A stretch of 64,000 nucleotides of DNA from an uncultured Ignavibacteria bacterium (GTDB taxonomy: Bacteria; Zixibacteria; MSB-5A5; JAABVY01; JAHJOQ01): positions 922 to 64,921 of the forward strand of contig CAYQCE010000003.1 of NCBI GenBank assembly GCA_964415885.1, read 5' to 3'. The translations under genes and the position numbers were made by a program. Under the pieces are notes generated by a model, which had not been told where the DNA came from, did no database searches, and was given only the letters and a program-made list of their open reading frames with translations. Positions 16,891-50,246 of the stretch are shown here, piece after piece (within the stretch, counting starts at the first letter, position 1; each line of letters begins with the position of its first letter).

Positions 16891-16899
16891 TGCACATCC

Positions 16900-19263: not shown

Positions 19264-19326
19264 TACTTTACCCTCTTCTCACAGTTTGTCCGGATGAGGC
19301 TTTTCAGCCTCACCCGGTACTTTGAA

Positions 19327-19740: not shown

Positions 19741-19813
19741 CTAAAACCACCTCGCCTTGGATCAGGAGAGGCCGGTTATGACCTCTCCCGATTGGTTATC
19801 TGGTGAATCTCGC

Positions 19814-23961: not shown

Positions 23962-23996
23962 ATGCGTGAGAAGATAAGCCAGAAGGAGTTATTCGG

Positions 23997-24872
23997 ATGA
24001 AGATCCTGATATCTGATGCATTTGACCCCTCCCTGCCGGAGAAACTCGCGAAATACGGCGAAGTGACCGACGACAAGGATCAACTCAAGGATGCCGACGT
24101 CGTTCTCGTTCGCAGCAAGACCAAGTGCACGAAGGAGTACATAGACAGTGCACCCAACCTGAAGCTCATCATCAGGGGCGGTGTGGGACTCGACAATATT
24201 GACAGAGACTATGCCAAAGAGAAGAACATTATCGTTCACAACACCGCCGAGGCTTCCGCAATCGCCGTCGCGGAACTCGCAATGGCGCTGATGCTCACGA
24301 TGCCATGCAACGTTATTCCCGGCCATAATTCGATGAAGGAAGGCAAGTGGATGAAAAAGGAGCTCAAGCGTACGGAGCTCTTCGGAAAAACGCTCGGCCT
24401 GATGGGCGTCGGGAATATCGGGACGGAAGTTGCCAGGCGTGCCAAAGCCTTCGGAATGCACGTTATAGCCTACGATCCCTTCATCAAGGCGCATGACTAC
24501 GCTGACATAGTTGCGAATCTCGATGATTTCATCGGCCGCTGCGATTACATATCGCTGCACATGCCACTCACCGATGATACGAAAGGTATGATCAATAAGG
24601 GCCTCATTGCGAAGATGAAGGATGGAGTCTATATCGTGAACACGGGACGCGGCAAGTGCGTCAATGAGGATGATGTCGCCGAGGCGCTCAAATCCGGCAG
24701 GATAAAGGGATTTGCGACAGACGTATGGTACAGCGATCCGCCGGAGAGCACTCCTCTGCTGGATGCCCCAAATTTCGTCGCAACACCTCATATAGGCGCG
24801 TCCACCAGGGAGAATCTGCTCAGGATCGGCGAGGTTATAGACCGCCTTATCGGGGAATTCGTCAGCAAATAG
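23997..24872 (+). CDS. serA: D-3-phosphoglycerate dehydrogenase (short form, no ACT domain)
   Basis: RGGVGLDNI, AVAEL, GVGNIG, NTGRG, TPHIGAST; next to serC. Confidence 0.8.
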   Translation: MKILISDAFDPSLPEKLAKYGEVTDDKDQLKDADVVLVRSKTKCTKEYIDSAPNLKLIIRGGVGLDNIDRDYAKEKNIIVHNTAEASAIAVAELAMALMLTMPCNVIPGHNSMKEGKWMKKELKRTELFGKTLGLMGVGNIGTEVARRAKAFGMHVIAYDPFIKAHDYADIVANLDDFIGRCDYISLHMPLTDDTKGMINKGLIAKMKDGVYIVNTGRGKCVNEDDVAEALKSGRIKGFATDVWYSDPPESTPLLDAPNFVATPHIGASTRENLLRIGEVIDRLIGEFVSK

Positions 24873-24895
24873 TGTGAGCCGAAAGGAGAACGAAA

Positions 24896-25978
24896 ATGGC
24901 TAACCGCATATACAATTTCAATCCGGGCCCGGCGACACTACCGCTGCCGGTTATCGAGAAAATCCAGGGCGAGCTGCTGGACTATCAGGGTACGGGCATG
25001 TCTATACTCGAGACCAGCCACCGTTCACCGGAATTCAAGCAGGTCCACGAAGATACAAAGAGCCTGCTCAGAGAGATCGCGGGCATTTCTGATGACTACC
25101 ACATTCTATTCACTGCAGCAGGCGCGAGCATGCAGTTCGCGATGATACCGCTCAATTTCCTGCCGAGCGGAAAATCAGCGGATTATGTCAATACCGGCAC
25201 CTGGTCCAAAAAGGCGATCAAGGAGGCCCAGATAGTCGGAAATGTAAACGTGGCTGCATCCAGCGAAGACAAGGACTTCACTCACATCCCGAAGAACCTG
25301 AATTTGGATCCGAATGCCGCCTATGTTCACATTACGACAAACAACACGATTAAGGGTACGCAGTGGATGAGCATTCCCGATACAGGCAGCGTACCTCTGA
25401 TCGCTGACATGTCTTCCGACATTTTCTGCCGCAAGCTGGACTTCGGCAAGTTTTCGATGATCTACGCTGGAGCGCAGAAGAATCTCGGTCCGGCTGGTGT
25501 CACTGTCGTGCTCCTGCACAAGGACCTCGCTGAAAAAGCCAACGAGGGGCTGAATACGATGCTCTCCTACGGCACGTATATCGAGAAGGACTCGATGTTT
25601 AATACACCGCCTTGCTTTGCTATCTACACCGTGAAGCTCGTTCTCGAATGGGTGAAGGAGCAGGGTGGCCTCGAGGGTGTCGAGAAAATCAACGACAAGA
25701 AACAGAAGCTGCTCTATGACACGATCGATTCATCCGGCGGCTTCTATCGCGGCACCGTGGAGAAGGAAGACCGCTCATGGATGAATGCGACATTAAGAAT
25801 GTCGGATGAAGATCTCGAAAAGACATTCATCGCAGAGGCGAAGAAAGAAGGCCTGCATGGTCTAAAAGGTCATCGTTCCGTCGGCGGTATTCGTGTGTCG
25901 ATGTACAATGCCCTGCCTCTCGAGGGAATCGAGAAACTTGTCGACTTCATGCATGATTTCCAGAAGAAAAACGGATAG
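24896..25978 (+). CDS. serC: Phosphoserine aminotransferase
   Basis: NFNPGPATLP, SHRS, ADMSS, YAGAQKNLGPAG, NTPP, KGHRSVGGIR. Confidence 0.96.
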   Translation: MANRIYNFNPGPATLPLPVIEKIQGELLDYQGTGMSILETSHRSPEFKQVHEDTKSLLREIAGISDDYHILFTAAGASMQFAMIPLNFLPSGKSADYVNTGTWSKKAIKEAQIVGNVNVAASSEDKDFTHIPKNLNLDPNAAYVHITTNNTIKGTQWMSIPDTGSVPLIADMSSDIFCRKLDFGKFSMIYAGAQKNLGPAGVTVVLLHKDLAEKANEGLNTMLSYGTYIEKDSMFNTPPCFAIYTVKLVLEWVKEQGGLEGVEKINDKKQKLLYDTIDSSGGFYRGTVEKEDRSWMNATLRMSDEDLEKTFIAEAKKEGLHGLKGHRSVGGIRVSMYNALPLEGIEKLVDFMHDFQKKNG

Positions 25979-26002: not shown

Positions 26003-26038
26003 AAGCTCCGTCTCAATGCGAGACGGGGCTTTTCTTTT
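26003..26038 (+). terminator. Intrinsic terminator after serC
   Basis: AAGCTCCGTCTC-AATGC-GAGACGGGGCTT followed by TTCTTTT. Confidence 0.8.
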
Positions 26039-26092: not shown

Positions 26093-26692
26093 TCAGGATG
26101 AACCCGCAGCCCCTGCAGGCTTGGCTGCAGGCTTGGCCGCACGCTCGACTGCTGCAGAGTCAAGCCTCGACATAGCAAAAAGTCGGAGGACGGAAACTGC
26201 ACCATCGACGCTCAGCATCGAGGTATTCAGAACGAGATCGGGAGCTTCCGGCGGTTCGTACGGATCGCTGATTCCGGTGAAATTATCGATCTCGCCGTCG
26301 AGTGCCTTTCTATAAAGACCTTTCACATCACGTTCGATCAGCGTATCAAGGTCCGAGTCGAGGAAGATTAAAGAGAAGCGGTCTTCTCCAACAATACCGG
26401 AACGGACTTCCTCTCGGTCCTCCTCATAAGGCGAGATCAGTGCGCAGATTACAATCGAGCCGAAATCGGCCATCTCTCGCGCCATCGCGCCGACCCTTCT
26501 GACCTGACGCGCTCTACCTTCGCGCGAGAAATCCGTATGCCCCGTCTTGTCCCGCACGGCATCGCCGTCCAGAACACGGACATTGTACCCCGCACTCGAC
26601 AGGATATCTCCGAGGCAGTTGGTTAATGTGGTCTTGCCGGCTCCCGAGAGCCCGGTAAACCAGAATACATAGCCCTTCTTACAATCTTCCAT
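26093..26692 (-). CDS. cysC: Adenylyl-sulfate (APS) kinase
   Basis: WFTGLSGAGKTT, LDGDAVR, LISPY, RDVKGLY, NFTGISDPYEPP. Confidence 0.93.
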   Translation of the reverse strand: MEDCKKGYVFWFTGLSGAGKTTLTNCLGDILSSAGYNVRVLDGDAVRDKTGHTDFSREGRARQVRRVGAMAREMADFGSIVICALISPYEEDREEVRSGIVGEDRFSLIFLDSDLDTLIERDVKGLYRKALDGEIDNFTGISDPYEPPEAPDLVLNTSMLSVDGAVSVLRLFAMSRLDSAAVERAAKPAAKPAGAAGSS

Positions 26693-26732
26693 CTGGATTT
26701 CGCCCTATGCTCAATGCCCCTTCTCAGGCGGC

Positions 26733-27392
26733 TTAAGCGTATTCGAAAGTCTCCTCTGGTCGAACCGTGACTCTCTCGAATTCGTGCTCAATTGGCAGAC
26801 CTTCGTTGTTCAAGTACTTGCGGTTGCCGTCCCGCAGGCTTACTTCCGAAGGATCGATTGTAACATCCAGGCCGACCGATTCCATCGCGAGCTTGAAGTA
26901 CGTGAATCCGAGAAGCATCAGCGCCTCATAGCTGAAGATGAAATGCTCGATTTTCTCGCGCTCGAGATGGGTAAATATGACGTCGTAAGCCTTCTTGATG
27001 CGCTCCGAAGCTATCTTGATATTCTTGTTTCTGTCTACTCGGCAGAGCGACAGCGTTAGCACGTTGACATCGCGGGTGGTCACGATCACCAGAAGCTCGC
27101 GCCCGGTTTTCTCAGCGAGTCGTTTCAAGTTCGCTATGTTGTACCATACAGGGCGGGCGCCATGCGGATATGAGCGGCGCATCAAGACATGCTTCTCCGT
27201 GTCAGTGATTTGAAGAAACTGATTCACTGCGTCATCGATCTTGTCGTTCTGAAGGTTGCTCCAGACGGTGTCAAAGTCCTGCTCATGCTTCTCTGCGTTG
27301 TGCCCGTCAACGCTGTCAAGCGAACCGATTATCGACGAGATGAATCGGGTACCGGTGCCCTCTGAACCTGCAACGTAGATTATTCGTTTCAT
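26733..27392 (-). CDS. Putative PAPS-dependent sulfotransferase
   Basis: N-terminal IYVAGSEGTGTRFI resembles the 5'-PSB loop; VIVTTRD...S resembles the 3'-PB motif; FSYEAL; directly upstream of cysC. Confidence 0.6.
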   Translation of the reverse strand: MKRIIYVAGSEGTGTRFISSIIGSLDSVDGHNAEKHEQDFDTVWSNLQNDKIDDAVNQFLQITDTEKHVLMRRSYPHGARPVWYNIANLKRLAEKTGRELLVIVTTRDVNVLTLSLCRVDRNKNIKIASERIKKAYDVIFTHLEREKIEHFIFSYEALMLLGFTYFKLAMESVGLDVTIDPSEVSLRDGNRKYLNNEGLPIEHEFERVTVRPEETFEYA

Positions 27393-27423
27393 TCCGACCT
27401 TCCTATGTCAATGTAAGTTGATT

Positions 27424-28305
27424 TCATTCCTCAATGGATCCGGCGCCAAGTAGTTTCCGCCCCTCGAATACGTACCCTACAAGACGTGTGACATCATCGA
27501 TATCCACAAAACCGTCACCGGTAGGATCTGCCGCCGAGAATCGCTCTGGCGGGAGCCCCTCATGAAAGATGTAGTCTATCAGGAATATTACATCGTCCAC
27601 GTCTACGGAACGAGAGGCGTCGGCATCTCCCCAGATGTACTCCGGTGCCTCCAGCAGGAATCTCCGCGTCAACTCGGACAACAGATCGCTTTGGGTCGGT
27701 CGAGATATGTAAAAGACTCGACCCTTGCCGTATGCGCTCCGGGAAACGGCGATATCATCTGTCGCATCGCCGGGACAATGCCACTTCACAATCACATCAC
27801 ATCCCGGGAGCGGCTCGGCAAGCGCGCCAAATGAGTAGTGGCACGGTACACTGTCGATTCGCTCATCGACCTGATATCCATACTGCGCAGCGGCATCTGT
27901 AGCCATCATAATACCCGCGGCGTTCGTATAGTCTTCGCATGCGAACCAGTGATAGATCGGGTCGATTGTATCTGTCGAAGCGATGAAATATGGGATTCCG
28001 CCTCCGCATATCAAAGATCCGCCGGCGTGAATGTACTCATCGAGGACCTCAGTTCGGCATGATACTGCAGCGCCTCGCGACATCAGCATGACACAAGAGT
28101 ACCGGTCCTTATCGAGATCAAGCGGTATATAGTCGAGGTACTCGTAGTCAAACGAAGTCCTACTCAGAATCTGGCTTAGCTCCTGCCCCTCGGGCATGAT
28201 TCCCGACATCGAGTCGGTCACTATTGCGATTCGATTCTGAGAGAATGCCTCTGCCGAGATTAGCAGCATGGCAATCATCGAAATCTGTGCCAACACTCTT
28301 GACAC
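27424..28305 (-). CDS. Secreted protein with a C-terminal dockerin-type domain
   Basis: Signal peptide; duplicated Ca-loop motifs WGDADASRSVDVDDVIFLIDYIF and ADPTGDGFVDIDDVTRLVGYVF; N-part resembles a class-I glutamine amidotransferase-like fold (YIHAGGSLI, YGKGRVFY). Confidence 0.75.
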   Translation of the reverse strand: MSRVLAQISMIAMLLISAEAFSQNRIAIVTDSMSGIMPEGQELSQILSRTSFDYEYLDYIPLDLDKDRYSCVMLMSRGAAVSCRTEVLDEYIHAGGSLICGGGIPYFIASTDTIDPIYHWFACEDYTNAAGIMMATDAAAQYGYQVDERIDSVPCHYSFGALAEPLPGCDVIVKWHCPGDATDDIAVSRSAYGKGRVFYISRPTQSDLLSELTRRFLLEAPEYIWGDADASRSVDVDDVIFLIDYIFHEGLPPERFSAADPTGDGFVDIDDVTRLVGYVFEGRKLLGAGSIEE

Positions 28306-28307
28306 AT

Positions 28308-31004
28308 CTAACTCCCGCCTGTAACAGATGCCTCGAGCGACGCCAGATTCTCACGCGCCGGAGCGTAGTCCGGCTCTAACTGCAAAGCCCTTTCGTAGCC
28401 CACTTTCGCTGATTCATAGTGCCCGAGCCGGTAGTAGACATCGGCAACCTTCGTGAGGATTATGTGCGATTCCGGCATTAGCGACAGGCATAGTTCGTAC
28501 AGCTTGAGAGCGGCATCGAGCCGGCCTTTTTCGAACATTATGTCCCCGAGCAGATGAGCCACCTGAAAATCGTCGGGGGACAGCTCGAGATATGACGACA
28601 GCAGATCTGCAGCCTCATTCAGCTTCCCGGACTGCGCGAGTGTCAAGCCAAGATTGCGCGATACGAGCGCCGAATTCGGGCTGTGCGAGAGAGCGTTTCT
28701 ATAAGCTCTCTCAGCATCTTCGTATCTGCCGAGTTTGTAGTACGAGTTTCCGAGGTTGTTGAACACGTCGCCATCAGCTTCACCCTTCACCATCAGCCCT
28801 TCATAGTGGGCTGCGGCATTCTGAAAGTCATGCGCGGCGAAGTTAATATCACCGATCAGCCGGGCCGCGATTTCGAAATCCGGATGTTCACGCTGAAGAT
28901 CGTCGGCAATCCGTTTGGCATCATCAATCCGCTCAATCTGGAAATAGAGGGTTGCCAGCGCCTTCATTATGTCGCGATTTCGCGGCTGGGCTTTGTCGGC
29001 TTCCAAAAGATGTTGCTCCGATCGGGAGGCCTTTCCGATCAGGCGGTATGATTCTCCGAGAATGTAATGCGCCGGCCATGCATCCGGATGATTCTTCAAT
29101 TCAACTTCTGCTTCTTTCGCGGCAGACTCGTATTCGTTCTTATTGAACAGTATCTGCGCGATTCGCAGATGAGTCTCGAGAAATCCCTCGCCACATTCCG
29201 CCGCCCTGCGATAGTATTTTAGCGCTTCATCGACGTTCTTGAGATTCTCGCACGTCATCGCGAGATTGTAGTAGGCGTTCTGTTCCGATTTGAACGACAG
29301 AAGGATGATCGCTTCCGTCTCCTCGTTGTCCTTGAATGTCTCTCGAGCCTCGAGGTACCTCTCATACCACTTCTTAGCCTCTGTCCATTTCTGCTGAACC
29401 GATGAGATATGACCAAGCGTAATCAAGGGATCGAGATAATCGGGCCGATACTCGAGTGCTCTCTCGCAGGCTCGCCTTGCGTCATCAAGCCGGTTCTGGA
29501 AGTAGTATCCACTAGCGAGCTGATGGAGCGCCATCAAGTGAATGTGCCGCGTGTCCTTGTCATTCGGATCCGAATTGTCGACCGCCCTCTGAGCGTGGAA
29601 CTGTATCTTCTTCGCCTGTTCCGGACTCGGATTCGGCGTCTCGCCTCGGTATATCTGCGCGAGATTCATGTTGGCAAACGCATTGTTCGGATCCTCCTCG
29701 AGCTGCTGCAGCAGCAGCTCTCGAGAACGCTCGATCTTGCGCTTCATCTGCTCCGGCGAGAGGCCGTAGCCATAGTGCATGACTCGCACCGGACCGCGAA
29801 GGACTGTGTACCGATCAACGTCAAACTTCAACTGATTGTGCACGATGCCGGAGTAGTATGCTCCGATCGATCTCCGGAAAAATCGCGTTGACGGAAGAAA
29901 CGACTGATAGGAGCCATCCTCGGAGATATTGATCACCGAGCACGATACGAGATCATGTTCCTTCTGGTCGAGAAGTTGACGCAGTATCGGCAGGTCCTCC
30001 TGCACGATCTCCTCATCAGCATCGAGAATGCCAATCCACTCTTTGGTGGCGTAAGACAGCGACTGGTTTCTCGCTTTCGAGAAGTCCTTCTCCCACGCAT
30101 GGAAATGGACTTTTGCACCGTATGACTCGGCGATCTCGACTGTCCTGTCAGTAGAGCCCGTATCGACGACGATTATCTCATCGGCGAATGACTTGATGCT
30201 CTCCAGAGCTGTCGCCAGCCTCTCCTCTTCGTTCTTCACGATCATACAGAACGATACAGATGCCTTGTCGGTTTGCATCGAGTCTCTCAGCATCTCGAGC
30301 TCTTTCACATTCGGGCAGTGCTTGATACCACGTTCGAGCACTGTGATGGCATCTGCCTGCTGTGAGTTCGAGTTCAGCATGCGAGCGAGATTGATGTATG
30401 CAACCGGGTAGCGCGGCTCGGAATCGATCGAGCGTTCGAAGTACGCCACCGCCTCCTGAAGCCGCCCTTCCTCGCGAAGTGCCGCACCCATATTGTTCAA
30501 CACTTCGTACACCTTGTCGAATGTCCCTGTATATGCTGCATCGCTCCTATCGCTCTTGTCGAGCTGCGATCGAAGCTCGAGGTACTTCTGCCCGTAAATA
30601 TTCACGAGCGTGTAGTCCTCGAGACGGCTGTAGATATAGACGAGGAGATAGTATGCGTCGAGTTGCTCCTCATCCGCCGCAAGAGCCTTGAGCGCGCATT
30701 CCTTTGAAAGATCGTAATCGCCATTCTGAGCGGCCGCAAACCCCGCAACCCGGGACGCAAAGAGAAACGCGCGTTTGTCCTTCCCGGCCACCTCATCAGA
30801 GATTAGAGGCAGAATTGTCGAGAGCGCTGCCTCGTATTCGGCATCGTTGAGATGTCGCTGTGCAATATCTATCGTCTTCGCATACAGTGGATCGAACTTG
30901 ATTCCTGCTCCGGCAGAAACCGGATTAACCTCTGCACCGCGTTTTTTCGGCGTTCGCTTCGCTCTGCTCTTCTTCTGTTGCTTGCCCTTCTTAGCTCTTG
31001 CCAT
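28308..31004 (-). CDS. TPR-GT2-TPR glycosyltransferase
   Basis: SFCMIVKNEE, VVDTGSTD, DFSKARN, LDADE, HYGY flanked by many TPR repeats. Confidence 0.88.
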   Translation of the reverse strand: MARAKKGKQQKKSRAKRTPKKRGAEVNPVSAGAGIKFDPLYAKTIDIAQRHLNDAEYEAALSTILPLISDEVAGKDKRAFLFASRVAGFAAAQNGDYDLSKECALKALAADEEQLDAYYLLVYIYSRLEDYTLVNIYGQKYLELRSQLDKSDRSDAAYTGTFDKVYEVLNNMGAALREEGRLQEAVAYFERSIDSEPRYPVAYINLARMLNSNSQQADAITVLERGIKHCPNVKELEMLRDSMQTDKASVSFCMIVKNEEERLATALESIKSFADEIIVVDTGSTDRTVEIAESYGAKVHFHAWEKDFSKARNQSLSYATKEWIGILDADEEIVQEDLPILRQLLDQKEHDLVSCSVINISEDGSYQSFLPSTRFFRRSIGAYYSGIVHNQLKFDVDRYTVLRGPVRVMHYGYGLSPEQMKRKIERSRELLLQQLEEDPNNAFANMNLAQIYRGETPNPSPEQAKKIQFHAQRAVDNSDPNDKDTRHIHLMALHQLASGYYFQNRLDDARRACERALEYRPDYLDPLITLGHISSVQQKWTEAKKWYERYLEARETFKDNEETEAIILLSFKSEQNAYYNLAMTCENLKNVDEALKYYRRAAECGEGFLETHLRIAQILFNKNEYESAAKEAEVELKNHPDAWPAHYILGESYRLIGKASRSEQHLLEADKAQPRNRDIMKALATLYFQIERIDDAKRIADDLQREHPDFEIAARLIGDINFAAHDFQNAAAHYEGLMVKGEADGDVFNNLGNSYYKLGRYEDAERAYRNALSHSPNSALVSRNLGLTLAQSGKLNEAADLLSSYLELSPDDFQVAHLLGDIMFEKGRLDAALKLYELCLSLMPESHIILTKVADVYYRLGHYESAKVGYERALQLEPDYAPARENLASLEASVTGGS

Positions 31005-31019
31005 ATCAATATCGCCTTC

Positions 31020-31997
31020 TTATCTGACTCCAGCGGGGCTCTGCGGCACCCGATAGGGGTTCATATATGCGGGTCTGTTGGCTCCGATTCCATAGATCTG
31101 CTTCATCCATTCGATCGTTCTCGGCACTCCGACCTCCAGCGGTACTGACGGGTCGTGGCCGAAGTCCATCTTGGCTTTCGAGATATCAGGTTTCTTGTTC
31201 ATGACATTGTGCTTGTCTTCAGGGAGGTATGTCACCAGATTCTCGGAGGCTCCGGTATACTTGAGAACAAGGTCGGACAGGTCTTTGACACTCCGGAATT
31301 CACTTCCACCGATGTTGTAGACATTACCTGACTTGAAGTTCTCGCAGACCTCCGCGAGTGTCGGCACGAAGTCATCGATGTACATGAACACTCTGTGGTA
31401 TCCCAGGAAGACATTCCAGGGGATATTGTGGAGCGCTCTGTAGCAGAACAGACAGACCACCGAGCGATAGTGGTGATAGTGCTCACCGGGACCGTAGGCA
31501 TTAAAGAACCTGAGACGGACTACGGGCACCTCGTATCGACGTTCGAAGTTCATGATCTGAATCTCATTCACCCACTTTGTTGTAGCGTAGTCATTGTGCT
31601 GGATGATCGACGAATGCAGGGGAATGTCCTCGCGAAGGACATCCTCATGCTTGTCACCATAGATCTCCGATGAAGACGCAAATATGAGTTTGAAACCCTT
31701 TTTCTTCTGCCACTCGAGAATGTTGCGGGTTCCGATTACGTTGCTCTGCCAGAGCGTGTCGTAAAACTCTTCTCCGTTGATCCTGCCGAATTCCGCTGCG
31801 AGATGATAGACATAATCGTAGTTCTGCTCGAACACGCGTTCGAGCTGGCGGTAGTTTGCAACATCCGCGCGGAAGTAGTTCTCATCGGCCTGATGCTGCA
31901 GATCGCATGCCCAGACCTCATGCCCCCGCGCCTGGAGTTCGGCAACCAGGGGCTGCCCCAGCGTTCCCTTGCTTCCAGTGACCAGAATCTTAGCCAT
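31020..31997 (-). CDS. NAD-dependent nucleotide-sugar epimerase/dehydratase
   Basis: ILVTGSKGTLG, YHLAA, ASSSEIYG, YATTK, RFFNAYGP. Confidence 0.9.
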   Translation of the reverse strand: MAKILVTGSKGTLGQPLVAELQARGHEVWACDLQHQADENYFRADVANYRQLERVFEQNYDYVYHLAAEFGRINGEEFYDTLWQSNVIGTRNILEWQKKKGFKLIFASSSEIYGDKHEDVLREDIPLHSSIIQHNDYATTKWVNEIQIMNFERRYEVPVVRLRFFNAYGPGEHYHHYRSVVCLFCYRALHNIPWNVFLGYHRVFMYIDDFVPTLAEVCENFKSGNVYNIGGSEFRSVKDLSDLVLKYTGASENLVTYLPEDKHNVMNKKPDISKAKMDFGHDPSVPLEVGVPRTIEWMKQIYGIGANRPAYMNPYRVPQSPAGVR

Positions 31998-32056
31998 TAT
32001 CTGCTCCTTAATTATTCAATGATTTCGTTGTTATAATCCTTGTTCAGCTCGCCCGA

Positions 32057-32860
32057 TCACAGAGTTGTTACGACGGAGCCCACTCCACTCAAATTAAACT
32101 CCCCAGCCAATCTGCCCAGTATCCGCTGTTTCACATCTCCAAGGTTAGGCAGAGGCTTGCGCTCCGGCATATACTCCTCGCCAAACCACTTGTAGTCGAC
32201 TTCTTCCAGTTCTGCGCCATCAAGTACCGACAGGTAGTTTCCTGTCGGATGAAGCCGAAGATAGTTCGAGATCTTGCCGTAGAGCTTCTCCTCCGATGCG
32301 GAGCTGTAGTGCAACAGCTTTATGTTTACTTTGGTTGGATTGTCCATCTGCGGCGGCCAGAGTCTCTTGTGCAGCCCCGCAACCTCCTCGATTCGCATGT
32401 CACCCGCATTCCGCCAGATTCTCGGAGGGCTTGTCTTTCCGAGGCCTTTGTCGACCCTGTACCAGTTCTCCGCTATCCAGAGTTGTATCCATTCAAAGCA
32501 GAGAGAATTGATTCGCCTCGACTCCGCCCAGCGGAGCATATTGCGGAAGAACCCGTTCTCAAAAACACGTTTTTCGAACAGCTCGTCTGCATCGAACGAG
32601 ATGATCCAGTCCGGATCCAGTGTCATCACCCTTTCGAGCAGTCGTGCCTTGTTTGTCGTCTCGGCGTTCTTTTCCCAGTTGTTTTCGCGGTTGACTATTA
32701 TCTGGTCAGTGTACTCACGTACGATCTCAATCGAGTTGTCCGTCGAGGCGTCATCGAGAACGACCATTTCATCACAGAGCTTCGAGTAGTGATCCAGCGC
32801 TGTCCTCAGATGGCCGAGTTGTCGCTCGTTGAATATCTGAGCCATTCCGACGATTTTCAT
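32057..32860 (-). CDS. GT2-family glycosyltransferase
   Basis: VVLDDASTDNS, WIISFDADE, LLHY. Confidence 0.8.
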   Translation of the reverse strand: MKIVGMAQIFNERQLGHLRTALDHYSKLCDEMVVLDDASTDNSIEIVREYTDQIIVNRENNWEKNAETTNKARLLERVMTLDPDWIISFDADELFEKRVFENGFFRNMLRWAESRRINSLCFEWIQLWIAENWYRVDKGLGKTSPPRIWRNAGDMRIEEVAGLHKRLWPPQMDNPTKVNIKLLHYSSASEEKLYGKISNYLRLHPTGNYLSVLDGAELEEVDYKWFGEEYMPERKPLPNLGDVKQRILGRLAGEFNLSGVGSVVTTL

Positions 32861-32861
32861 A

Positions 32862-33125
32862 TCAAGTCCCTACTTTCTCCACCTGATGATAGATCTTCAC
32901 CTTCGGGTCGGTGATCTTTACGCCGCCGCTGACCGCATCCGCGAGGAACTGATCGATTTCATCGATCAGGTCATTGCGCTGCTGGTTTACGAGCGATACC
33001 TTGTCGGCAGCATCGAGACGCTCGCTGTCCGGAAGTGACATGTCTCTCCGGATGTCTTCGAGATGCCACAGGCGCAAGTTCTTTATCGTCAGCTTGTCAA
33101 CCAGACTTCCCAGTGTTTCCGCCAT
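32862..33125 (-). CDS. Small DUF4254-like protein
   Basis: ETLGSLVDKLTI, LWHLED, NQQRNDLIDEID. Confidence 0.65.
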   Translation of the reverse strand: MAETLGSLVDKLTIKNLRLWHLEDIRRDMSLPDSERLDAADKVSLVNQQRNDLIDEIDQFLADAVSGGVKITDPKVKIYHQVEKVGT

Positions 33126-33149
33126 CTTGGTCTCCTTTATCTCAGAATC

Positions 33150-34928
33150 TTAGAATTCCATTCTTCCCGTGGGAAGCTCAATGCGCGAGCTCGACAGCTT
33201 CGCGAGGAGCTTACCGCTCTTGCTCTTCTCCGCCCTGTCATCGAGCAGAACAGAACCGGTATTCTCGCCCATCCAGAGCCCATTGCGAAGCTTCGGTTCG
33301 AAATCATATATGCAAATGCCATAATCCTGTTTGAGCCTGCACTGACTGCAGATCGATTCTCCCTGAGGGACAAACCACTCCTTGCCGGGAGCCTTCGGAT
33401 TGTCTAACCGCCGCATCGTCTCCTCAGCGACCTGCTCAGTTGTTACATCGTGTGAACTGCGCATCCTCCGGCGCATTATGCTCTTCGACCAGTAGTGGCT
33501 AAACTCCCATTCGTATAGTTTTCCACCCCTTCCCGGCTTGATGAAACTTATGACCTCGCCGGTAGTCTTTTCCGAGCAGAGATAGGTGAGTCTTAGCTGC
33601 GGGAGCACGCACTTGTTCGGGATTCCGCCCCAAACGGGCGCCTCGTCATCCTCACACGTATGAATCACGATCTGCGGCGTCTCAACCAAAGGTGCGATCA
33701 TCGCCGAAACAGCGGTCGATGTGGAAATCAACAGATCCATCTTTTGGAAGAGAAGGACCTCGTCATACGCCACGAGTCTTCCCAAATCCGTAACATTCGG
33801 GATGTCCACGAGACTGCTCGACTCTTCCTGAGCGCTGTAAAAGGTGTAAAAGTCTATGTCGCTCCGCTGGCTGTTTAGGACATTTATGAGCTTACGGTAC
33901 TTTTCCGCATCCCAACCGGAGATTTCCCACGGAAGCGACATGTTGGGTCGATAGGTCGGGATGAAAAGCATGACCTTCTTCTTCCCATTCGACTTTGCCA
34001 ACATTCTGTCGACTCGATCGATGTCTTCCTGAGGGTAGTTGAACTTGAGACGTATACCCTTGTCGAGTACTCTGTCCCAGCCATCTGGACCATCGAAACC
34101 GTCGATGAACTTTCGCGGCTGCCACTTCTCATCTACATCGAATGCCCCACGCAACACCACATCGTATTTATAGTCGTTGAGCGGCACCGATGGATTATCG
34201 ACTGTCTTCTCAGTGACTTCGTCCACAGTCTCGGCTATCTCAAACAGAGGTTTCTCAATCTTGCCGGCGGCATATGCTACATGCGCACCAGGGTATCTGG
34301 CCTTGAAAATAGCGGTCAGCGGATATGACAGAAGTGAATCTCCGAATACACGTGCGATTGACTCAACGAGAATTTTCGGACCGGCAGTCTCCTTACGCAT
34401 ACTGTTCGACGGAACCCTGCGCGCGCTTTCCCGGATATCATCTTCAGACTTCTGAGCTTCGATCAGAATCCGCAGCGGGTCACGCCCCGGAAGCGGCCTC
34501 GGCTGGTCGAAACCACTATCCTCAAGCGCTCGCTTCAGTGAGCCGATATCATAGAGCTGTTTCACGAAATCATATTCGTGATCCTGAGCACCATACATCA
34601 GCCTGACAAGATCGCGGAGACGTCTCGAATCACGCCCATCTCTCAGCGCAGCCGACAGCTCCCGAATCATCCTCGGTAGATCAAGCGTCTCAATGCGGAT
34701 ACTCCCACCCGGCTTAAGCACACGGTGCCATTCCCGGAGGAATTCTACCAGTTCGTTCACGCCCAGATACTCGACGAGTCTCGATGCGTTCAGTTCGTCC
34801 ACCGAGCAATCGTCGAATGGCATGCGGCGTGCGTCGGCAACATACGTGGCGCCGGGCAGTTCTCTAATGTCGAGGCCTTCGAAACCTTCTCTTATTTCTT
34901 CTCCACAACCGAGATCAATCTTCAACAT
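33150..34928 (-). CDS. SAM methyltransferase / GT9-like glycosyltransferase fusion
   Basis: IDLGCG...EWHRVLKPGG (class I MTase), then FGDSLL...FKARYPGAHV and DLLISTST...APLVETPQI (GT9-like). Confidence 0.7.
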   Translation of the reverse strand: MLKIDLGCGEEIREGFEGLDIRELPGATYVADARRMPFDDCSVDELNASRLVEYLGVNELVEFLREWHRVLKPGGSIRIETLDLPRMIRELSAALRDGRDSRRLRDLVRLMYGAQDHEYDFVKQLYDIGSLKRALEDSGFDQPRPLPGRDPLRILIEAQKSEDDIRESARRVPSNSMRKETAGPKILVESIARVFGDSLLSYPLTAIFKARYPGAHVAYAAGKIEKPLFEIAETVDEVTEKTVDNPSVPLNDYKYDVVLRGAFDVDEKWQPRKFIDGFDGPDGWDRVLDKGIRLKFNYPQEDIDRVDRMLAKSNGKKKVMLFIPTYRPNMSLPWEISGWDAEKYRKLINVLNSQRSDIDFYTFYSAQEESSSLVDIPNVTDLGRLVAYDEVLLFQKMDLLISTSTAVSAMIAPLVETPQIVIHTCEDDEAPVWGGIPNKCVLPQLRLTYLCSEKTTGEVISFIKPGRGGKLYEWEFSHYWSKSIMRRRMRSSHDVTTEQVAEETMRRLDNPKAPGKEWFVPQGESICSQCRLKQDYGICIYDFEPKLRNGLWMGENTGSVLLDDRAEKSKSGKLLAKLSSSRIELPTGRMEF

Positions 34929-34932
34929 AGGA

Positions 34933-37900
34933 TTATACCTTTTCGAGGAAGTCTGACAGGTGACGGATCAGGTCTTTTTCATGCCACCACTTTCTAAACC
35001 AGTCGTATGTCTTCTTCTGCAAATGCTCCAGGTCTTTCGGATTCGAAACGAGATCTCGAATGAAGTGATAGACCTCACTCTCCGTCGACGGCGTATACCA
35101 CGGCAACTCGTTAGTACCGATCGAATTCGCGATGACCTTCTTACCGAAATCATCCATGTGAACAATGTTGACCATTCCGAGCGCCGAGTTCTCGACCGAG
35201 GACAGACAATAGTAGCCATCGCCGATCTGGAGCTGGTCGAACGCAATGTTACCCTGCCGTTTCAGGTTGATCGCCTCGTCGAACCCCATATTCTCGCAGA
35301 GACGGAAACTCACATTCGGGTAGACTGCGCTGATTTTGTTGTCTACAGATTCATAGATATCGGTGTTCTTGATCGGGCGATCAGTCGGCGAATGGATGAC
35401 TGTAATCTGATCGCCAACCTCGATCTCGCGATGATACCTCGGATTCTCCAGATCTATCAGAATCGGGGTGTACGTCGATCCTGGCATGTTTCGATGAATA
35501 TCCGGCTGGCAGGTTATTATCGGCCATCCCTTTTCACGATACAGATCGAGATAGAACTGGTAGTTCCTGCGGATGGATGTCGACCCATAGAAGAACACCG
35601 CACATCGCTTGTCCTTCGTATAGACGCGCCAGTCGATCGGTCCAAACGGGACATCATCGGTGTCACGATACTGCGAGTCGAACTGAGATACACCGGGCGC
35701 GACCGCAGCCGAGAATAGAAGCACATCCGCTTCCTCGGCTACTCGCTGCACCTCGGAGAAGTCTGTCATAGCCTCTTCGCCGCCCCACGCTGTCTTTTTC
35801 AGAACGATATCGGAATCGAACCCGCGTGATTCGGTGTGCGTGACAATCCTCATCTTGTGAGGCGTATAGCGCTCCACAGCCTTTTTGAACATCGCTGAGA
35901 TGCCGCCCGGATCGATTACGCCGATCCACGCGATATTCAGGCTCTTCTTCGTATTCGACTTGCCCACGAACGGCTTCCTTGGCGTTACGAGCTTCTTGTT
36001 CTGCTCATACGCATCGAACCAGTTCTTCATATATCCGCGATAGATATCCCAATGCTTCTCTGTATCGATGCTGTTCGCAACGTTATCGTCGTGCACACGA
36101 TAGTAAAGGAGCGGCTCATCCATGTATGCGATGTCGTAGAAGTACGCTATCTTGTGCCACATCGCGCCGTCGGCAGTGTAGCCACGTCTTCCACCGAGCC
36201 CCTCGTCAAACCAACCGGTCCTTTCGAGGCACGACTTGCGGAACATCGCCGAGCAGCCGTTAATCGGGTTGCGATTCCAGAGATCTTCGAGCGGGTTCTC
36301 CAACGGCTTCACATTGGCTCTGCCTGTGACATTCGATCTCTCATCGATATAATCGAAATCCGAGTAGACCATCGCGATCTCAGGATGCTCGTGCAGATAC
36401 CGTATCTGTTTCTCGACTTTCTCGGGTTTATAGACATCGTCCGAGGAGAGCCAGCTAATCAGATCGCCTTCGGCAGCACGGATGCAACTGTTCAAAGCAG
36501 CCGAGACACCGCGATTGCGGTGATGGCTCAGAATCTTCACTCTGTCCTTATACTTCTCGAGCACAAACTGCGTGCTGTCGGTCGAGCAATCGTCGCAAAC
36601 GATCACTTCGCAATTCTTGTAGGTCTGTTTGAGCGCTGATTCGATCGCTTCCTCGAGATACTCCGCGCGGTTGAATGTCGGAATTACAATCGACACCCTG
36701 CCAAGATCGACATCGCTCTTCCTGACCGCTTCCGGGACAAGCCTGTTGCGCTTCTGGTCCGTCGATCTGCCGGACGGACTCGCTCCAAGCGAGTCGATGA
36801 CCCTTGTGAATCCGCGCACCGTATTCTCGAGCGAGAATTGGCCGGCTATATATTCACGGTTTTCGTGCGCGAGTTCCTTTCGATCGGCCCCCATCAGCTC
36901 CCTCACCAGACGAACGCAATCATCCGGTGTGTAGAACAGGTACTTTTCCGGATAGATGTTCTCTGCACCGGGCCAGTGATGAACCAGCGGGAGGACTCCG
37001 GACGCCATCCCCTCGGCGATCGAATAGTGGAACGACTCGAACAACGAGGTCGAGATTACAAAATCCTTGTCCTTTAAGTAGGCCGGCACATCGTTGACCC
37101 AGTTTTCGAGACTAATCGGAAGATTCAGCTTCGTGAGCATGTGGTCAAAGTATATCTTGATCCGCGGATCCTGATGAGCCCCGGCTATGTGGAACCTGAA
37201 CTCCGGATCCCAGTCGTGAATCGCCTTGAAGCAGTACAAGAGCAGCGCCGGATTTTTCTTGTAGTTGATGTATCCGAGCGAACAGATGTTCTTGCCGTAC
37301 TTCTTGTCTTGTGGAACCACGAACTTATTTATGTCCACGCCGTTGCGGATAATCTCCGGCTTGATCGGAAGATTGTGGAATGTTCGCAGAACATGCTCGA
37401 CATTCTCATTGACGAGGATGAGCTTATCCACCTTGCTCCAATCGACCATGTCCGGCATTTCGGTGAATGCCTCATAGGAATGCAGCCGACAAATGATCTT
37501 GCATGTCTTCGGAAGCTTGGTCGCCTCGATCAGAAGCTGGTCACACCATTCGAACCATGCCACATCCGCCCACCGAAGAAGCTCGGTGAACTGCTCGACG
37601 TTCTGGCCCGCAAAGCGGCGTATTTCATTGTTTCTGGACAGTTGATGAAGAATCCCTTCGGCAAATGAGTTTTGAGTCGAGAAGAACGCAATCTTGTAAC
37701 CTCTTTTGGCGGTTTCGGCCGTGCGTGCAACCGTAATTGGACGGCCAGGCTCCGTGCTCTCGACCAAACTGGCAGCCTGTGTGATCTTCTGCCTGATCTC
37801 CTTCATCTTAGGATCATCCGGAACCAGCTTAAGGAAGCTATCAACGGCTTCAGTCGCTTCGTCGAAACGTTTCCGGCTGAGGCAGAATTCGACCAGATTC

Positions 37901-38379
37901 TCGTATGCTTTCTCGTAGAATGGATTCAATTTGATAGCCTTGTTAAAGCACTCGATCGCCTCACCCGTCTTTTCAGCGTGGGCAAGAACGACCGCTAGAT
38001 CATTGAACCCTTCTGCATTCTGCGGATCGAGCTCAGTGACCTTCGTAAAGGAAACGATCGCTCGCTCGGTGTCCTCCTCAGCGGCATACAGAAGACCCAG
38101 ATTGTGATGGATGTCTCTGTCGTCAGGGGATATCTCGAGAGCTTTCTCGAGATGGTCTATTGCGGCGGAGTAGTTCTCCAGTCGAGTCGCAAGTCCGCCG
38201 GCAGTGGTCTGAATTTCGATTGACTGCTGGAATTTCTGTGAGAGCTCGTCAACAAGTTCATAAGCCTTTGCCAGCTCTCCGGCCCTAATGTAGATATCTG
38301 CGAGTTCCAGACGGCTCTGGTGGTCATCCGGAGATGATACTACCTTTGCCTCCAGCTCCCGGGTCTTCTGCACATCCAT
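34933..38379 (-). CDS. Multidomain TPR-GT4-GT2-GT-B glycosyltransferase
   Basis: TPRs; ESFHYSIAEGMASG (GT4); VSIVIPTFNR, VCDDCSTD, LSSDD (GT2); C-terminal HSPTDR..K...FDQL...SSVENSALG. Confidence 0.85.
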   Translation of the reverse strand: MDVQKTRELEAKVVSSPDDHQSRLELADIYIRAGELAKAYELVDELSQKFQQSIEIQTTAGGLATRLENYSAAIDHLEKALEISPDDRDIHHNLGLLYAAEEDTERAIVSFTKVTELDPQNAEGFNDLAVVLAHAEKTGEAIECFNKAIKLNPFYEKAYENLVEFCLSRKRFDEATEAVDSFLKLVPDDPKMKEIRQKITQAASLVESTEPGRPITVARTAETAKRGYKIAFFSTQNSFAEGILHQLSRNNEIRRFAGQNVEQFTELLRWADVAWFEWCDQLLIEATKLPKTCKIICRLHSYEAFTEMPDMVDWSKVDKLILVNENVEHVLRTFHNLPIKPEIIRNGVDINKFVVPQDKKYGKNICSLGYINYKKNPALLLYCFKAIHDWDPEFRFHIAGAHQDPRIKIYFDHMLTKLNLPISLENWVNDVPAYLKDKDFVISTSLFESFHYSIAEGMASGVLPLVHHWPGAENIYPEKYLFYTPDDCVRLVRELMGADRKELAHENREYIAGQFSLENTVRGFTRVIDSLGASPSGRSTDQKRNRLVPEAVRKSDVDLGRVSIVIPTFNRAEYLEEAIESALKQTYKNCEVIVCDDCSTDSTQFVLEKYKDRVKILSHHRNRGVSAALNSCIRAAEGDLISWLSSDDVYKPEKVEKQIRYLHEHPEIAMVYSDFDYIDERSNVTGRANVKPLENPLEDLWNRNPINGCSAMFRKSCLERTGWFDEGLGGRRGYTADGAMWHKIAYFYDIAYMDEPLLYYRVHDDNVANSIDTEKHWDIYRGYMKNWFDAYEQNKKLVTPRKPFVGKSNTKKSLNIAWIGVIDPGGISAMFKKAVERYTPHKMRIVTHTESRGFDSDIVLKKTAWGGEEAMTDFSEVQRVAEEADVLLFSAAVAPGVSQFDSQYRDTDDVPFGPIDWRVYTKDKRCAVFFYGSTSIRRNYQFYLDLYREKGWPIITCQPDIHRNMPGSTYTPILIDLENPRYHREIEVGDQITVIHSPTDRPIKNTDIYESVDNKISAVYPNVSFRLCENMGFDEAINLKRQGNIAFDQLQIGDGYYCLSSVENSALGMVNIVHMDDFGKKVIANSIGTNELPWYTPSTESEVYHFIRDLVSNPKDLEHLQKKTYDWFRKWWHEKDLIRHLSDFLEKV

Positions 38380-38640
38380 GTACAACCTTCTTCCTATTTT
38401 TCACAAATTCCAATTCGTGTTTCATATCTGCCCTGTTATCCTCGGGCATTTCAGGCTGATCCGACAGCCATCCTGAGCAATTCCAGCTCAAGCTACCGGC
38501 CATGAGGCCGTTCTCCAATTCTCTGCGTCCTGCGATCCCGGCGGCGGTGGCCCCCTTTAGCCCTAACACAGCCTCAAAATGTGAGGCGGTTGGATCAGAT
38601 GACGATCCTGCCGCGCCGAGAATTTCTTTCTGCGTATCCA

Positions 38641-39120
38641 TCAGATCTTAACTGCGAGAGAGTCTTTTTTCTTCTTCTTGTCTCTCTTCTTCTCCAGTTC
38701 ATCCATGATGAAGTGCTGGATAGTATAAGGACTGTTTACCAGCACTGTTTGCTTCGCTATGCTCTTATCCACATTGATAAGCAACGGTCCCTGGAGATTC
38801 GCGGACATCTGCGATATGTCCTTCGGGATCGTTACGATAACATAGGTTTCCACATTCGTCGTCTCGTCGACCTCGATATCCTCCAGCTCTCTCAGGCTCA
38901 TCTCTATCTTGTAGCCGGGGAAGAAGAACGCCGGATTTGAGATCACGAACGCCAGATTGGGGTCCTCAATTGACTGGAGCCACCTGAAGGGCTCGGAATC
39001 CTCTCTGTGCAGAATCACATACTCGTGGAACTGCTCGAAACCTAGAATCCCTTTCGGGAAATCGACTATTTTGTCTTCCGGAATATCCAGTTCGCCGAAT
39101 CTTAATGTCACGATCTTCAT
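38641..39120 (-). CDS. fliW: Flagellar assembly factor FliW
   Basis: TLRFG, FPKGILGFE, WLQS..DPNLAF, SANLQGPL. Confidence 0.93.
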   Translation of the reverse strand: MKIVTLRFGELDIPEDKIVDFPKGILGFEQFHEYVILHREDSEPFRWLQSIEDPNLAFVISNPAFFFPGYKIEMSLRELEDIEVDETTNVETYVIVTIPKDISQMSANLQGPLLINVDKSIAKQTVLVNSPYTIQHFIMDELEKKRDKKKKKDSLAVKI

Positions 39121-39129
39121 TATCAAATC

Positions 39130-41082: not shown

Positions 41083-41086
41083 CGTG

Positions 41087-41242
41087 CTAACCCTCTTCGT
41101 AGTAGACAAACTCGGAGTCGAGACCGTTGCTCATCAGCTTCTCGGCGGCCTCTTTGTCGATACTCGACTTTCCACTCTGTTCTCTCGAACCCGAGAGCTG
41201 CTTTTCGCTCTGGTTCAGATCTTTTTCTTTTCCATTGCTCAT
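41087..41242 (-). CDS. 51-aa hypothetical protein between csrA and flgL
   Basis: ATG overlaps the csrA stop (ATGA); [51 protein letters not shown] ends 4 nt before the flgL ATG. Confidence 0.55.
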
Positions 41243-41562
41243 TCCGGCGGCCTCTTGTTTCGCCTTTGATTCTTGCTGTCGGACTTATAGTTGATCTTTG
41301 CCTTTTTGTCCGACTGTTTCATCTCACCCTTAAATTTGTTCTTAAGAAGCCTCACCACGTTTCCAAGGTCTTCCTTGACAGCCTCGGATGCCTTGCGATT
41401 CTCATTCTGGATCTTGACATAGATCTCTTCTCGATGCACGACTACTTTCAGCGGCGCCTCGATGCCGATCCTGACCTGCCTGCCATAGATCCCGAGAACC
41501 GTGACCTTGATGTTGTCACCGATTGTGATGCTTTCTCCTAACTTCCTTGTCAGAATCAGCAC
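41239..41562 (-). CDS. csrA: Carbon storage regulator CsrA with C-terminal extension
   Basis: [16 protein letters not shown]...VRIGIEAP...HREEIY...EN. Confidence 0.95.
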
Positions 41563-50204: not shown

Positions 50205-50246
50205 TGCGCCTCAAAGATACTCATTCGAACAGGGTGCGCAACTATG

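Follow-up and report, generated by a model that had tools for sequence, protein, structure and literature searches.

The 64,000-nucleotide stretch analysed here (the window, positions 922 to 64,921 of contig CAYQCE010000003.1) belongs to the metagenome-assembled genome of an uncultured bacterium of sulfate-reducer type from a microbial mat metagenome (3.39 Mb in 101 contigs, 96.9% complete). Its late flagellar region contains, between the operons for the hook junction and the filament, an island of nine genes that encode glycosyltransferases (GTs) and other sugar enzymes, a secreted protein, a sulfotransferase-like protein (hereafter P0001) and CysC, a kinase of adenosine 5′-phosphosulfate (APS). 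We describe this island as a candidate flagellin O-glycosylation locus to which a sulfation module, dependent on 3′-phosphoadenosine 5′-phosphosulfate (PAPS), may have been added. The genes of the hook-junction operon and the island, together with the flagellin gene, are listed below in the direction of transcription, where TPR stands for tetratricopeptide repeats and HMM for hidden Markov model.

43031-43528, minus strand: flgN (Pfam FlgN)
41581-42990, minus strand: flgK (Pfam FlgK_D1)
41239-41562, minus strand: csrA (Pfam CsrA)
39130-41109, minus strand: flgL, 659 aa (Flagellin_N; TIGR02550, 253.9 bits)
38641-39126, minus strand: fliW (Pfam FliW)
38380-38640, minus strand: spacer of 261 nt between fliW and the first GT gene
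34933-38379, minus strand: protein of 1148 aa with TPR, GT4 and GT2 parts (Pfam) and a C-terminal domain of unknown family
33150-34928, minus strand: protein of 592 aa, an N-terminal class I S-adenosylmethionine-dependent methyltransferase joined to a 423-aa part of unknown family
32862-33125, minus strand: fragment-sized DUF4254 protein, 87 aa (PF14063)
32057-32860, minus strand: GT2 glycosyltransferase, 267 aa (PF13704, PF00535)
31020-31997, minus strand: NAD-dependent epimerase/dehydratase, 325 aa (PF01370)
28308-31004, minus strand: TPR-GT2-TPR protein, 898 aa
27424-28305, minus strand: secreted dockerin-like protein, 293 aa
26733-27392, minus strand: sulfotransferase-like protein P0001, 219 aa (no match to a standard HMM family)
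26093-26692, minus strand: cysC, APS kinase, 199 aa, final gene of the island (PF01583, TIGR00455)
19814-22042, minus strand: flagellin, 742 aa (Flagellin_N 3.9e-36, Flagellin_C 8.6e-22)

The operon flgN-flgK-csrA-flgL-fliW and the whole island share the minus strand, and flgN is preceded, in the direction of transcription, by flgF, flgG, flgA, flgH, flgI and a Rod-binding (FlgJ-like) gene. The first GT gene starts with an ATG at 38379, from where the nine genes run down to 26093 with intergenic gaps of 1-59 nt. A first-pass annotation, made from the letters alone, had already described the five flagellar genes as followed after about 260 nt by a tightly packed run on the same strand, and both its gene order and its positions proved right. 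The corresponding spacer measures about 85, 117 and 226 nt in three relatives of the same family. A 105-aa open reading frame (ORF) at 38324-38641, which begins on the last base of the fliW stop (TGATG), fills the spacer and overlaps the first GT gene by 56 nt, is probably not a gene: it has no family match, and one relative of the same family has a spacer of no more than about 85 nt. We also noted that csrA stands between flgK and flgL rather than beside fliW, a placement kept in relatives across the class, and that its 107-aa product carries the CsrA domain in residues 1-52 only.

The core GT of the island is the 898-aa TPR-GT2-TPR protein. The best solved relative of its GT2 domain (residues 235-470) is GmaR (E 2e-28, 103 bits), with residues 15-204 of the GT2 query aligned to chain residues 10-202 over about 190 residues, and the next matches in the PDB are SunS (1.8e-20) and the GT2 chain 7msk (1.3e-14). 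TPR families cover approximately residues 430-890, after the GT domain. The SunS family is named in NCBIfam as peptide S-glycosyltransferases, and the kinship with GmaR and SunS thus suggests that the 898-aa protein belongs to a GT2 clade acting on polypeptides. Among 61 related genomes, 56 have a match to its GT2 domain at E<=1e-10, and 38 (the window's genome included) have an orthologue at E<=1e-57 in an open frame of 713-1382 aa; a scan of genome contigs with the 898-aa protein returned distant matches of 25-41% identity, mostly cyanobacterial TPR-GT2 proteins.

When 20-kb stretches around 20 orthologues were compared with the window's proteins, the TPR-GT2-TPR orthologue was found downstream of fliW in 19 of the 20 loci (the exception being L046) and upstream of a large flagellin gene in 18; of the other two, one locus stops at a contig end (L029) and one shows no flagellin in the 7.4 kb fetched beyond the gene (L031). 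Across the 17 families sampled in the class, the gene keeps its place between fliW and flagellin. What the fliW-flagellin interval holds ranges from one gene, the minimal form fliW-GT-flagellin seen in three genomes (L037, L040, L041), to the nine of the window, with extra GT genes in other families and the long version in the window's own family and order. The view that TPR-GT2 enzymes of this kind are flagellin glycosyltransferases, voiced in the first-pass annotation, is thus strengthened both by the GmaR match and by the synteny in relatives, and we propose the 898-aa protein as the candidate initiating flagellin O-glycosyltransferase.

The presumed substrate is encoded about 4 kb beyond the cysC end of the island. 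This flagellin, which had been pointed out from the start as large, Ser/Thr-rich and close by, has indeed 742 aa and a Ser plus Thr content of 20.9% overall, 22.7% over residues 171-650 and 46% over residues 151-200; the island enzymes have 8-13%. As high Ser and Thr contents are usual in flagellins, the composition is permissive rather than probative. Across the class the large flagellin is conserved, its open frame measuring about 700-770 aa where it is complete, and in most genomes there is an additional short flagellin of about 260-300 aa at another place.

The other sugar enzymes of the island are of several kinds. The 1148-aa protein carries TPR repeats (residues 6-195), matches to Glycos_transf_1 and Glyco_trans_1_4 (residues 364-489) and a Glycos_transf_2 domain (residues 565-721, 4.3e-38); its C-terminal 350 aa, at first labelled GT-B, match nothing in the PDB, whether searched as a single sequence or as a five-sequence profile, and that label stays unconfirmed. 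The same applies to the label GT9 for the 423-aa part of the 592-aa protein: behind an N-terminal Methyltransf_11 domain (6e-08), this part has no PDB match and 14 homologues, none of which has a Pfam domain there, its RfaQ score is 15 bits against a cut-off of 467, and the ESM Atlas offers a lead of 0.89 to a cluster with PF01075 in 13% of its members. The DUF4254-like gene, by comparison, was correctly recognised: its 87-aa product scores 46.4 bits with PF14063, over profile positions 11-61 of 144 only (about one third of the profile), and is 76-90% identical in four relatives (L006, L027, L029, L030). The 267-aa GT2 protein matches PF13704 (2.4e-10) and PF00535 (6.6e-06), and the 325-aa epimerase/dehydratase matches PF01370 (3.6e-40), its best NCBIfam scores, for dTDP-glucose 4,6-dehydratase (106.7 bits) and ADP-heptose 6-epimerase (99.9 bits), lying far below cut-off.

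The 293-aa protein encoded 2 nt downstream of the core GT gene has a hydrophobic N-terminal segment at residues 4-22 (a predicted signal peptide), an α/β domain of unknown family and C-terminal dockerin-like Ca-binding repeats. Its name needs some caution: two orthologues of what the first-pass annotation called a dockerin protein score above the Dockerin_1 (PF00404) cut-off of 22.9 bits (32.7 bits in L005 and 24.5 in L006), and the window copy itself reaches 16.6 bits. The two D-rich loops are kept in 6/6 orthologues. The predicted structure (predicted local distance difference test, pLDDT, 56) gave a best fold match of Z 6.9, which is within noise. The gene follows the TPR-GT2-TPR gene in L006, L027, L028, L030 and L031 and is conserved at this place across the order.

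Some of these features might be read as signs of an island that builds a non-flagellar surface glycan, such as lipopolysaccharide, a capsule or an S-layer, its flagellar position being incidental. Epimerases/dehydratases are common in O-antigen loci, a secreted dockerin protein sits within the operon, and the GT2 and GT4 domains have NCBIfam matches to polysaccharide enzymes (TuaG, EpsE, WcaA, PglI), all of them far below cut-off. We consider this the least probable of the alternatives: a family scan of the island proteins gave no match to flippases, polymerases, ligases or initiating phosphoglycosyl transferases, membrane-like segments are absent from these proteins apart from the one signal peptide, and the core GT2 is GmaR- and SunS-like and holds its fliW-flagellin position across the families mentioned above. 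The region is, in our judgement, likely a flagellar glycosylation island.

The last gene of the island had been called an APS kinase gene, and this assignment is firm: CysC scores 168.9 bits with PF01583 (1e-49, cut-off 21.1) and 177.5 bits with TIGR00455 (cut-off 138.7), and its translation shows a GLSGAGKTT P-loop and an LDGD stretch, which we take to be the Walker A and catalytic motifs. The island cysC is the sole APS kinase match in the genome. The same genome holds dsrAB and one ATP sulfurylase gene (sat), so that a sat gene, proposed as something to look for outside the window, does exist. We found no PAPS reductase in the genome, the control for that model being positive in 14/14 genomes, and no Sulfotransfer_3 or Sulfotransfer_1 match; the corresponding search with Sulfotransfer_2 was uninformative, as its control matched nowhere. 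In the absence of a match to a PAPS reductase or a canonical sulfotransferase, the P0001 gene appears to be the only PAPS user in the genome. On the same strand, 31 nt separate it from the gene before it and 40 nt from cysC downstream.

Close homologues of P0001 number only three among 5.8 billion clustered proteins; none of the four matches Sulfotransfer_3 (PF13469, gathering cut-off 27 bits) even at E<=10, a profile of the four finds nothing in the PDB, and a scan of genome contigs with their alignment returned no relative. An exhaustive HMM search with the four sequences (1.84 billion searched) gave 309 representatives at E<=0.001, of which 38 are at <=1e-10 and 4 at <=1e-30; many of the 309 matches are 165-190 aa long. 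A Pfam scan was made of 28 of the 150 listed proteins, namely the nearest and all the long ones, and among these distant members Sulfotransfer_3 appears at E<=0.1 in 15/28 and above its cut-off in two (32.9 and 58.4 bits), and some members of the family are fused to methyltransferase, GT4 or Sulfotransfer_2 domains. A family profile built from 58 single-domain members has significant matches in the PDB that are all sulfotransferases, the tyrosylprotein sulfotransferase TPST1 being matched at E 1.6e-5, 2.2e-5 and 2.6e-5, and sulfotransferases account for 15 of its 18 PDB matches at E<=10.

The predicted fold points in the same direction. In a VIA-align search of 48,161 chains, for which the model of pLDDT 64 was used, sulfotransferases take every one of the first 12 ranks (Z 11.5-9.1, with 162-197 residues aligned at a root-mean-square deviation of 3.8-5.4), headed by TPST1/2 (Z 11.5 and 11.4) and including heparan sulfate 3-OST (10.1), Stf1 (9.9) and NDST (9.8). 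Sulfotransferases have a 5′-phosphosulfate-binding loop of the form PKSGTT or PRSGTT, with the catalytic Lys or Arg, and an R-x7-S motif for the 3′-phosphate. The P-loop of the P0001 family, GpessGTR, aligns with GVPRSGTT of TPST, and R107, invariant in the family (58/58), aligns with the Arg of 'VRDGRASVHS' in TPST1; we take the GVPRSGTT and VRD stretches of TPST to be the 5′-phosphosulfate and 3′-phosphate motifs. In the loop, G9 and T15 are present in 58/58 members, E11 and R16 in 55/58, and the invariant or nearly invariant residues of the family comprise E11, T15, R16, R72, R73, S74, P76, H77, R118, Y136, E156 and N190. The family thus has a GxExxGTR loop and an invariant RRSxPH motif of its own. 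The named neighbours of P0001 in the ESM Atlas are sulfotransferase clusters. The nearest Atlas clusters, as judged by language-model features, consist of phage (Uroviricota) hypothetical proteins, one cluster having 9,886 members; single short members of the P0001 family gave no match in viral contigs or, by tblastn, in a phage collection.

Several of the results obtained with P0001 tell against a sulfotransferase. Taken alone, it is without a match in Pfam, NCBIfam or the PDB sequences, and its AlphaFold model, made from four sequences, is poor (pLDDT 64.2). The basic catalytic position, Arg in TPST, is Ser in 46/58 members and Gly in P0001, and a Ser/Thr at +8 from Arg107 occurs in only 28/58, P0001 having S115. 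The sulfotransferase fold is itself a relative of the P-loop NTPases, and one may ask if P0001 is instead a P-loop kinase-like enzyme, for instance a sugar or nucleotide kinase, with cysC serving another purpose: GTPases and kinases follow closely in the VIA list (rows 13-17, Z 9.0-8.6), Foldseek has no match at E<=0.001 and mixes PezT and adenylate or UMP/CMP kinases (E about 2e-3) with sulfotransferases in its top rows, and the missing aligned Lys/Arg fits such an enzyme as well. Kinase P-loops follow the pattern G-K-[ST], and in P0001 the Walker A lysine is absent, while a Thr after the P-loop Gly, as in the ...SGTT... loops of sulfotransferases, is found in every one of the 58 members. The significant PDB matches of the profile include no kinase, and a kinase would leave the APS kinase without a client, no PAPS reductase or other sulfotransferase having been found in the genome. 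We regard the kinase alternative as very improbable.

On the profile and the model, P0001 is best described as a divergent protein of predicted sulfotransferase fold, not to be filed as a member of Sulfotransfer_3; judged by sequence profiles, it defines a very divergent sulfotransferase-like family that standard family models overlook. It probably works like a sulfotransferase, and its dependence on PAPS is likely. What had been called a sulfotransferase-like gene at 26733-27392 therefore keeps this description in terms of remote profile and fold matches, and lacks the aligned catalytic Lys/Arg and the Pfam match that a canonical enzyme would show. Since the best matches are TPST1 and TPST2, it is conceivable that P0001 sulfates the flagellin polypeptide directly, at Tyr or at Ser/Thr, and not a glycan. 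In this it would resemble the tyrosylprotein sulfotransferases and the bacterial enzyme RaxST. The lead of TPST1/2 over the carbohydrate sulfotransferases 3-OST, Stf1 and NDST is nevertheless small, the TPST catalytic Arg is not conserved in the P0001 family, and the module is always accompanied by GT and methyltransferase genes, in the window as in the cases described below; direct sulfation of the polypeptide is improbable.

The distribution of the P0001 gene and cysC differs from that of the core GT gene. A P0001-like gene was found in 0/60 relatives and an APS kinase in 0/5 relatives of the same family, and two relatives from metagenomes, with 82% and 69% identity, keep the order dockerin gene, P0001 gene, cysC. 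Two sister genera fill the slot behind the dockerin gene with other ORFs, which belong to no Pfam family and show no relationship to the P0001 family (hhalign probabilities of 2% and 0.1%):

L027:6330-7328 (G001): variable-slot ORF, 332 aa
L028:11661-12338 (G002): variable-slot ORF, 225 aa

This distribution suggests that the two genes are a recent joint addition to a variable tail of the island. It also raises the most serious alternative, in which the GTs glycosylate flagellin, and P0001 with cysC forms a separately acquired cassette that sulfates a small molecule, a lipid, an exopolysaccharide or the dockerin protein. The restriction of the pair to this genus-level clade and the unrelated ORFs in the same slot of two sister genera speak for such a cassette, as does the small size of P0001, which has neither TPR repeats nor another substrate-recognition domain. 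The opposing evidence is of two kinds. With gaps of 31 and 40 nt, a common strand and no terminator-like site before the end of cysC, the pair would share one transcript with the GT genes; in addition, four other genomes place a sulfotransferase and cysC beside flagellin, two of them with TPR-fused sulfotransferases inside the fliW-flagellin interval. We hold a separate cassette to be rather unlikely.

These four genomes (G026, G260, G273 and G274) belong to three other families of the class, which bears dsrAB and sat and counts at least 285 genomes at species level. Of 285 genomes searched, 44 have an APS kinase match at E<=1e-15; flagellin genes were located by their Flagellin_N matches in the 43 besides the window's own, and in the four the cysC gene lies within about 10 kb of a large flagellin gene on the same contig. 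Including the window's genome, linkage is thus seen in 5/44 genomes, against about 0.35-0.5 expected by chance, a rough estimate given that kin are not independent and that fragmented assemblies hide linkage. All four combine canonical Sulfotransfer_3 proteins, cysC and methyltransferase domains by their flagellin genes, with TPR-GT genes in attendance. In G273 the interval from fliW/TPR-GT2 to flagellin holds cysC, a 661-aa protein with TPR and Sulfotransfer_3 (116.4 bits; L103:10511-12496), a 1645-aa GT2-CheR-methyltransferase-GT4 protein and a TPR-GT4 gene. In G274 the interval from flagellin to TPR-GT2 encodes a 426-aa protein ending in a CysC domain, a 691-aa protein with TPR and Sulfotransfer_3 (132.3 bits; L104:3920-5995), a 1667-aa pyruvyl-transferase-GT2-CheR-methyltransferase-GT4 protein, a carbamoyltransferase and a GDSL protein. 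The genes of G260, for CysC, a 310-aa Sulfotransfer_3 protein (101.7 bits) and a 194-aa methyltransferase, are convergent with the filament operon at its HDOD end, and in G026 the HDOD gene is followed by genes for a 761-aa TPR-GT4-methyltransferase and a 597-aa Sulfotransfer_3 protein (40.2 bits), with cysC at the contig end.

The Sulfotransfer_3 proteins of G273 and G274 share 38% identity, that of G260 is 22-23% identical to both, and that of G026 is alike only around the P-loop; P0001 has no significant pairwise match to any of the four. Such mutual divergence points to separate recruitments. The presence of TPR arms on a sulfotransferase beside TPR-bearing GTs fits an enzyme that acts on a protein-bound glycan. 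From these cases a wider proposal can be framed, which we advance tentatively and at somewhat less than even odds: sulfate esters on flagellin O-glycans would be a recurrent and hitherto undescribed trait of this dsrAB-bearing class, in which the dissimilatory APS pool is tapped by a single added APS kinase, with at least three separate recruitments of sulfotransferases to the flagellar locus (TPR-fused Sulfotransfer_3, plain Sulfotransfer_3 and the GxExxGTR/RRSxPH family, which by its Atlas neighbours may also be abundant in phages).

The following observations weigh against a flagellar sulfation pathway. The secreted dockerin protein, encoded amid the operon genes, does not fit into a cytoplasmic pathway. 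In 39/44 cysC-bearing genomes of the class, cysC is without linkage to flagellin, a point that would also suit a separate cassette. The island is parted from flagellin by three unrelated genes on the opposite strand, and between the convergent ends of the last of these, an aminotransferase gene (serC-like by position), and of cysC there is a terminator-like hairpin:

26003-26031, plus strand: terminator-like hairpin with a 12-bp stem (7 pairs G-C), marking the 3′ end of the island
22660-25978, plus strand: genes for a DUF1015 protein, a 2-hydroxyacid dehydrogenase and a class-V aminotransferase

Finally, neither promoter nor terminator can be assigned in the spacer between fliW and the first GT gene: a pattern scan of 38380-38640 found no terminator-like or sigma-70-like site on the minus strand, and two exact patterns, sigma-54-like and sigma-28-like, are also absent from it. 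Beyond the three opposite-strand genes, the filament operon continues on the minus strand with flagellin, flaG, fliD and fliS (16420-22042), followed by an unknown 199-aa ORF, flgM and the HDOD gene. Two further gene sets of the window may be recorded at this point. Upstream of flgF, on the same strand, four genes at 48375-54254 are possibly another sugar-related set. One encodes a protein of 609 aa that has six membrane-like segments and ends in TPR; the remaining three encode two nucleotidyl transferases (one GalT/HIT-like, the other an NTP_transf_4/hexapeptide sugar enzyme) and an aldehyde dehydrogenase. At 682-3428 (minus strand) lie two tandem paralogues of glutamate/leucine dehydrogenase of 448 and 440 aa.

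The pathway that we favour can now be stated as a whole. It builds on the gene content and gene order of the locus, the homologies of its proteins, the uniqueness of cysC in the genome and the recurrence of the theme in other families; from these observations we infer what each enzyme does, to what the sulfate is passed and that the island is expressed together with the flagellar genes. A dissimilatory-type ATP sulfurylase, encoded elsewhere in the genome, would make APS, which the island CysC would phosphorylate to PAPS. The GmaR-like TPR-GT2-TPR enzyme would grip flagellin by its TPR arms and add the first sugar to Ser/Thr residues, possibly in the large surface-exposed middle domain. The chain would then be extended and O-methylated by the 1148-aa TPR-GT4-GT2 protein, the 267-aa GT2 and the methyltransferase fusion, with the epimerase/dehydratase supplying a modified nucleotide sugar, and P0001 would move sulfate from PAPS onto the glycan before flagellin leaves through the flagellar export apparatus. 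We put the probability of this entire chain, a cytoplasmic flagellin O-glycosylation island with an added PAPS-dependent sulfation module, at roughly one half (0.52). For the acceptor of P0001 taken separately, a flagellar glycan is the choice that we lean towards with modest confidence, and from the sequence evidence the filament probably carries a coat of sulfated and methylated sugars. The dedicated pathway for a sulfated, methylated flagellin O-glycan with its own PAPS supply, as put forward in the first-pass annotation, is in this sense supported in silico, each of its links having independent support from computation.

If this proposal is true, the sulfated and methylated coat would alter the surface charge of the filament, its recognition by phages and predators, and adhesion in sulfate-rich mats, and a single kinase would tie dissimilatory sulfur metabolism, through the APS pool, to the decoration of the cell surface. 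Four further genomes carry canonical sulfotransferases at the corresponding place, so that the idea could be tested in any carrier that is cultured.

Flagellin glycosylation islands between flgL and fliC are known, for example, from Pseudomonas aeruginosa. The window island resembles those of P. aeruginosa in having variable GT and sugar-modifying genes between the hook-junction and flagellin genes, with a content that differs among close relatives, and departs from them in its enzyme families (GmaR-like TPR-GT2) and in its additional genes for PAPS supply and for a sulfotransferase-like protein. For the core enzyme, the closest comparison is GmaR of Listeria monocytogenes, which acts on flagellin directly in the cytoplasm, its N-terminal GT domain transferring N-acetylglucosamine (GlcNAc) to flagellin and its TPR being proposed to recognise flagellin (PMC9638930). 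Both proteins have a homologous GT2 domain followed by TPR repeats, and both genes lie among flagellar genes. The 898-aa protein differs in its extra N-terminal TPR block and its much longer C-terminal TPR array; moreover, GmaR adds a single GlcNAc, whereas the multi-enzyme island would build an oligosaccharide, and no antirepressor function is implied here.

Sulfur-containing groups on flagellins have been described in two settings. The type B flagellin of Clostridioides difficile is reported to bear an O-linked oligosaccharide that includes methylated rhamnoses together with a sulfonated peptidylamido sugar; the genes flank fliC and include a GT with putative methyltransferase function, and no glycosulfotransferase gene is present according to its authors (PMC5207246). 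Methylated sugars and a sulfur-containing anionic group would be common to both systems (as predicted for the window), with a sulfonated sugar in C. difficile as opposed to the PAPS-dependent sulfate ester predicted for the window island. Flagellin glycosylation is a well-studied subject, yet a full-text search of the literature, not covering most subscription journals, yielded no case of a PAPS-derived sulfate ester on a bacterial flagellin glycan, nor one of a sulfotransferase encoded within a flagellar glycosylation locus. The nearest known case is the sulfonated sugar of C. difficile, for which no sulfotransferase gene was found. In archaea, flagellins and S-layer proteins, for example those of Halobacterium, are reported to bear sulfated N-glycans (PMC2913515, PMC12624080). 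The proposed sulfated glycan on a motility filament protein is shared with that case; the archaeal glycans are N-linked and lipid-carrier-assembled, on archaella unrelated to bacterial flagella.

The sulfotransferase-like protein and its PAPS supply have their own points of comparison. P0001 is like TPST and Sulfotransfer_3 proteins in that these are its best remote sequence and fold matches and that its P-loop-like 5′ loop and the Arg of the 3′ motif align with theirs; it is unlike them in being shorter (219 aa), in lacking the aligned catalytic Arg/Lys, in having its own RRSxPH motif and in staying below the Pfam thresholds. Substrate-specific sulfotransferases with dedicated sulfate-activation genes are familiar from rhizobial NodH with NodPQ and from Xanthomonas RaxST with RaxPQ. 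The NodPQ and RaxPQ modules carry ATP sulfurylase too, whereas the window module has the APS kinase only and would draw its APS from the bacterium's own sat, and the acceptors differ as well, being a lipo-chitooligosaccharide or a peptide in the Nod and Rax systems and, as proposed here, a flagellar glycan in the window.

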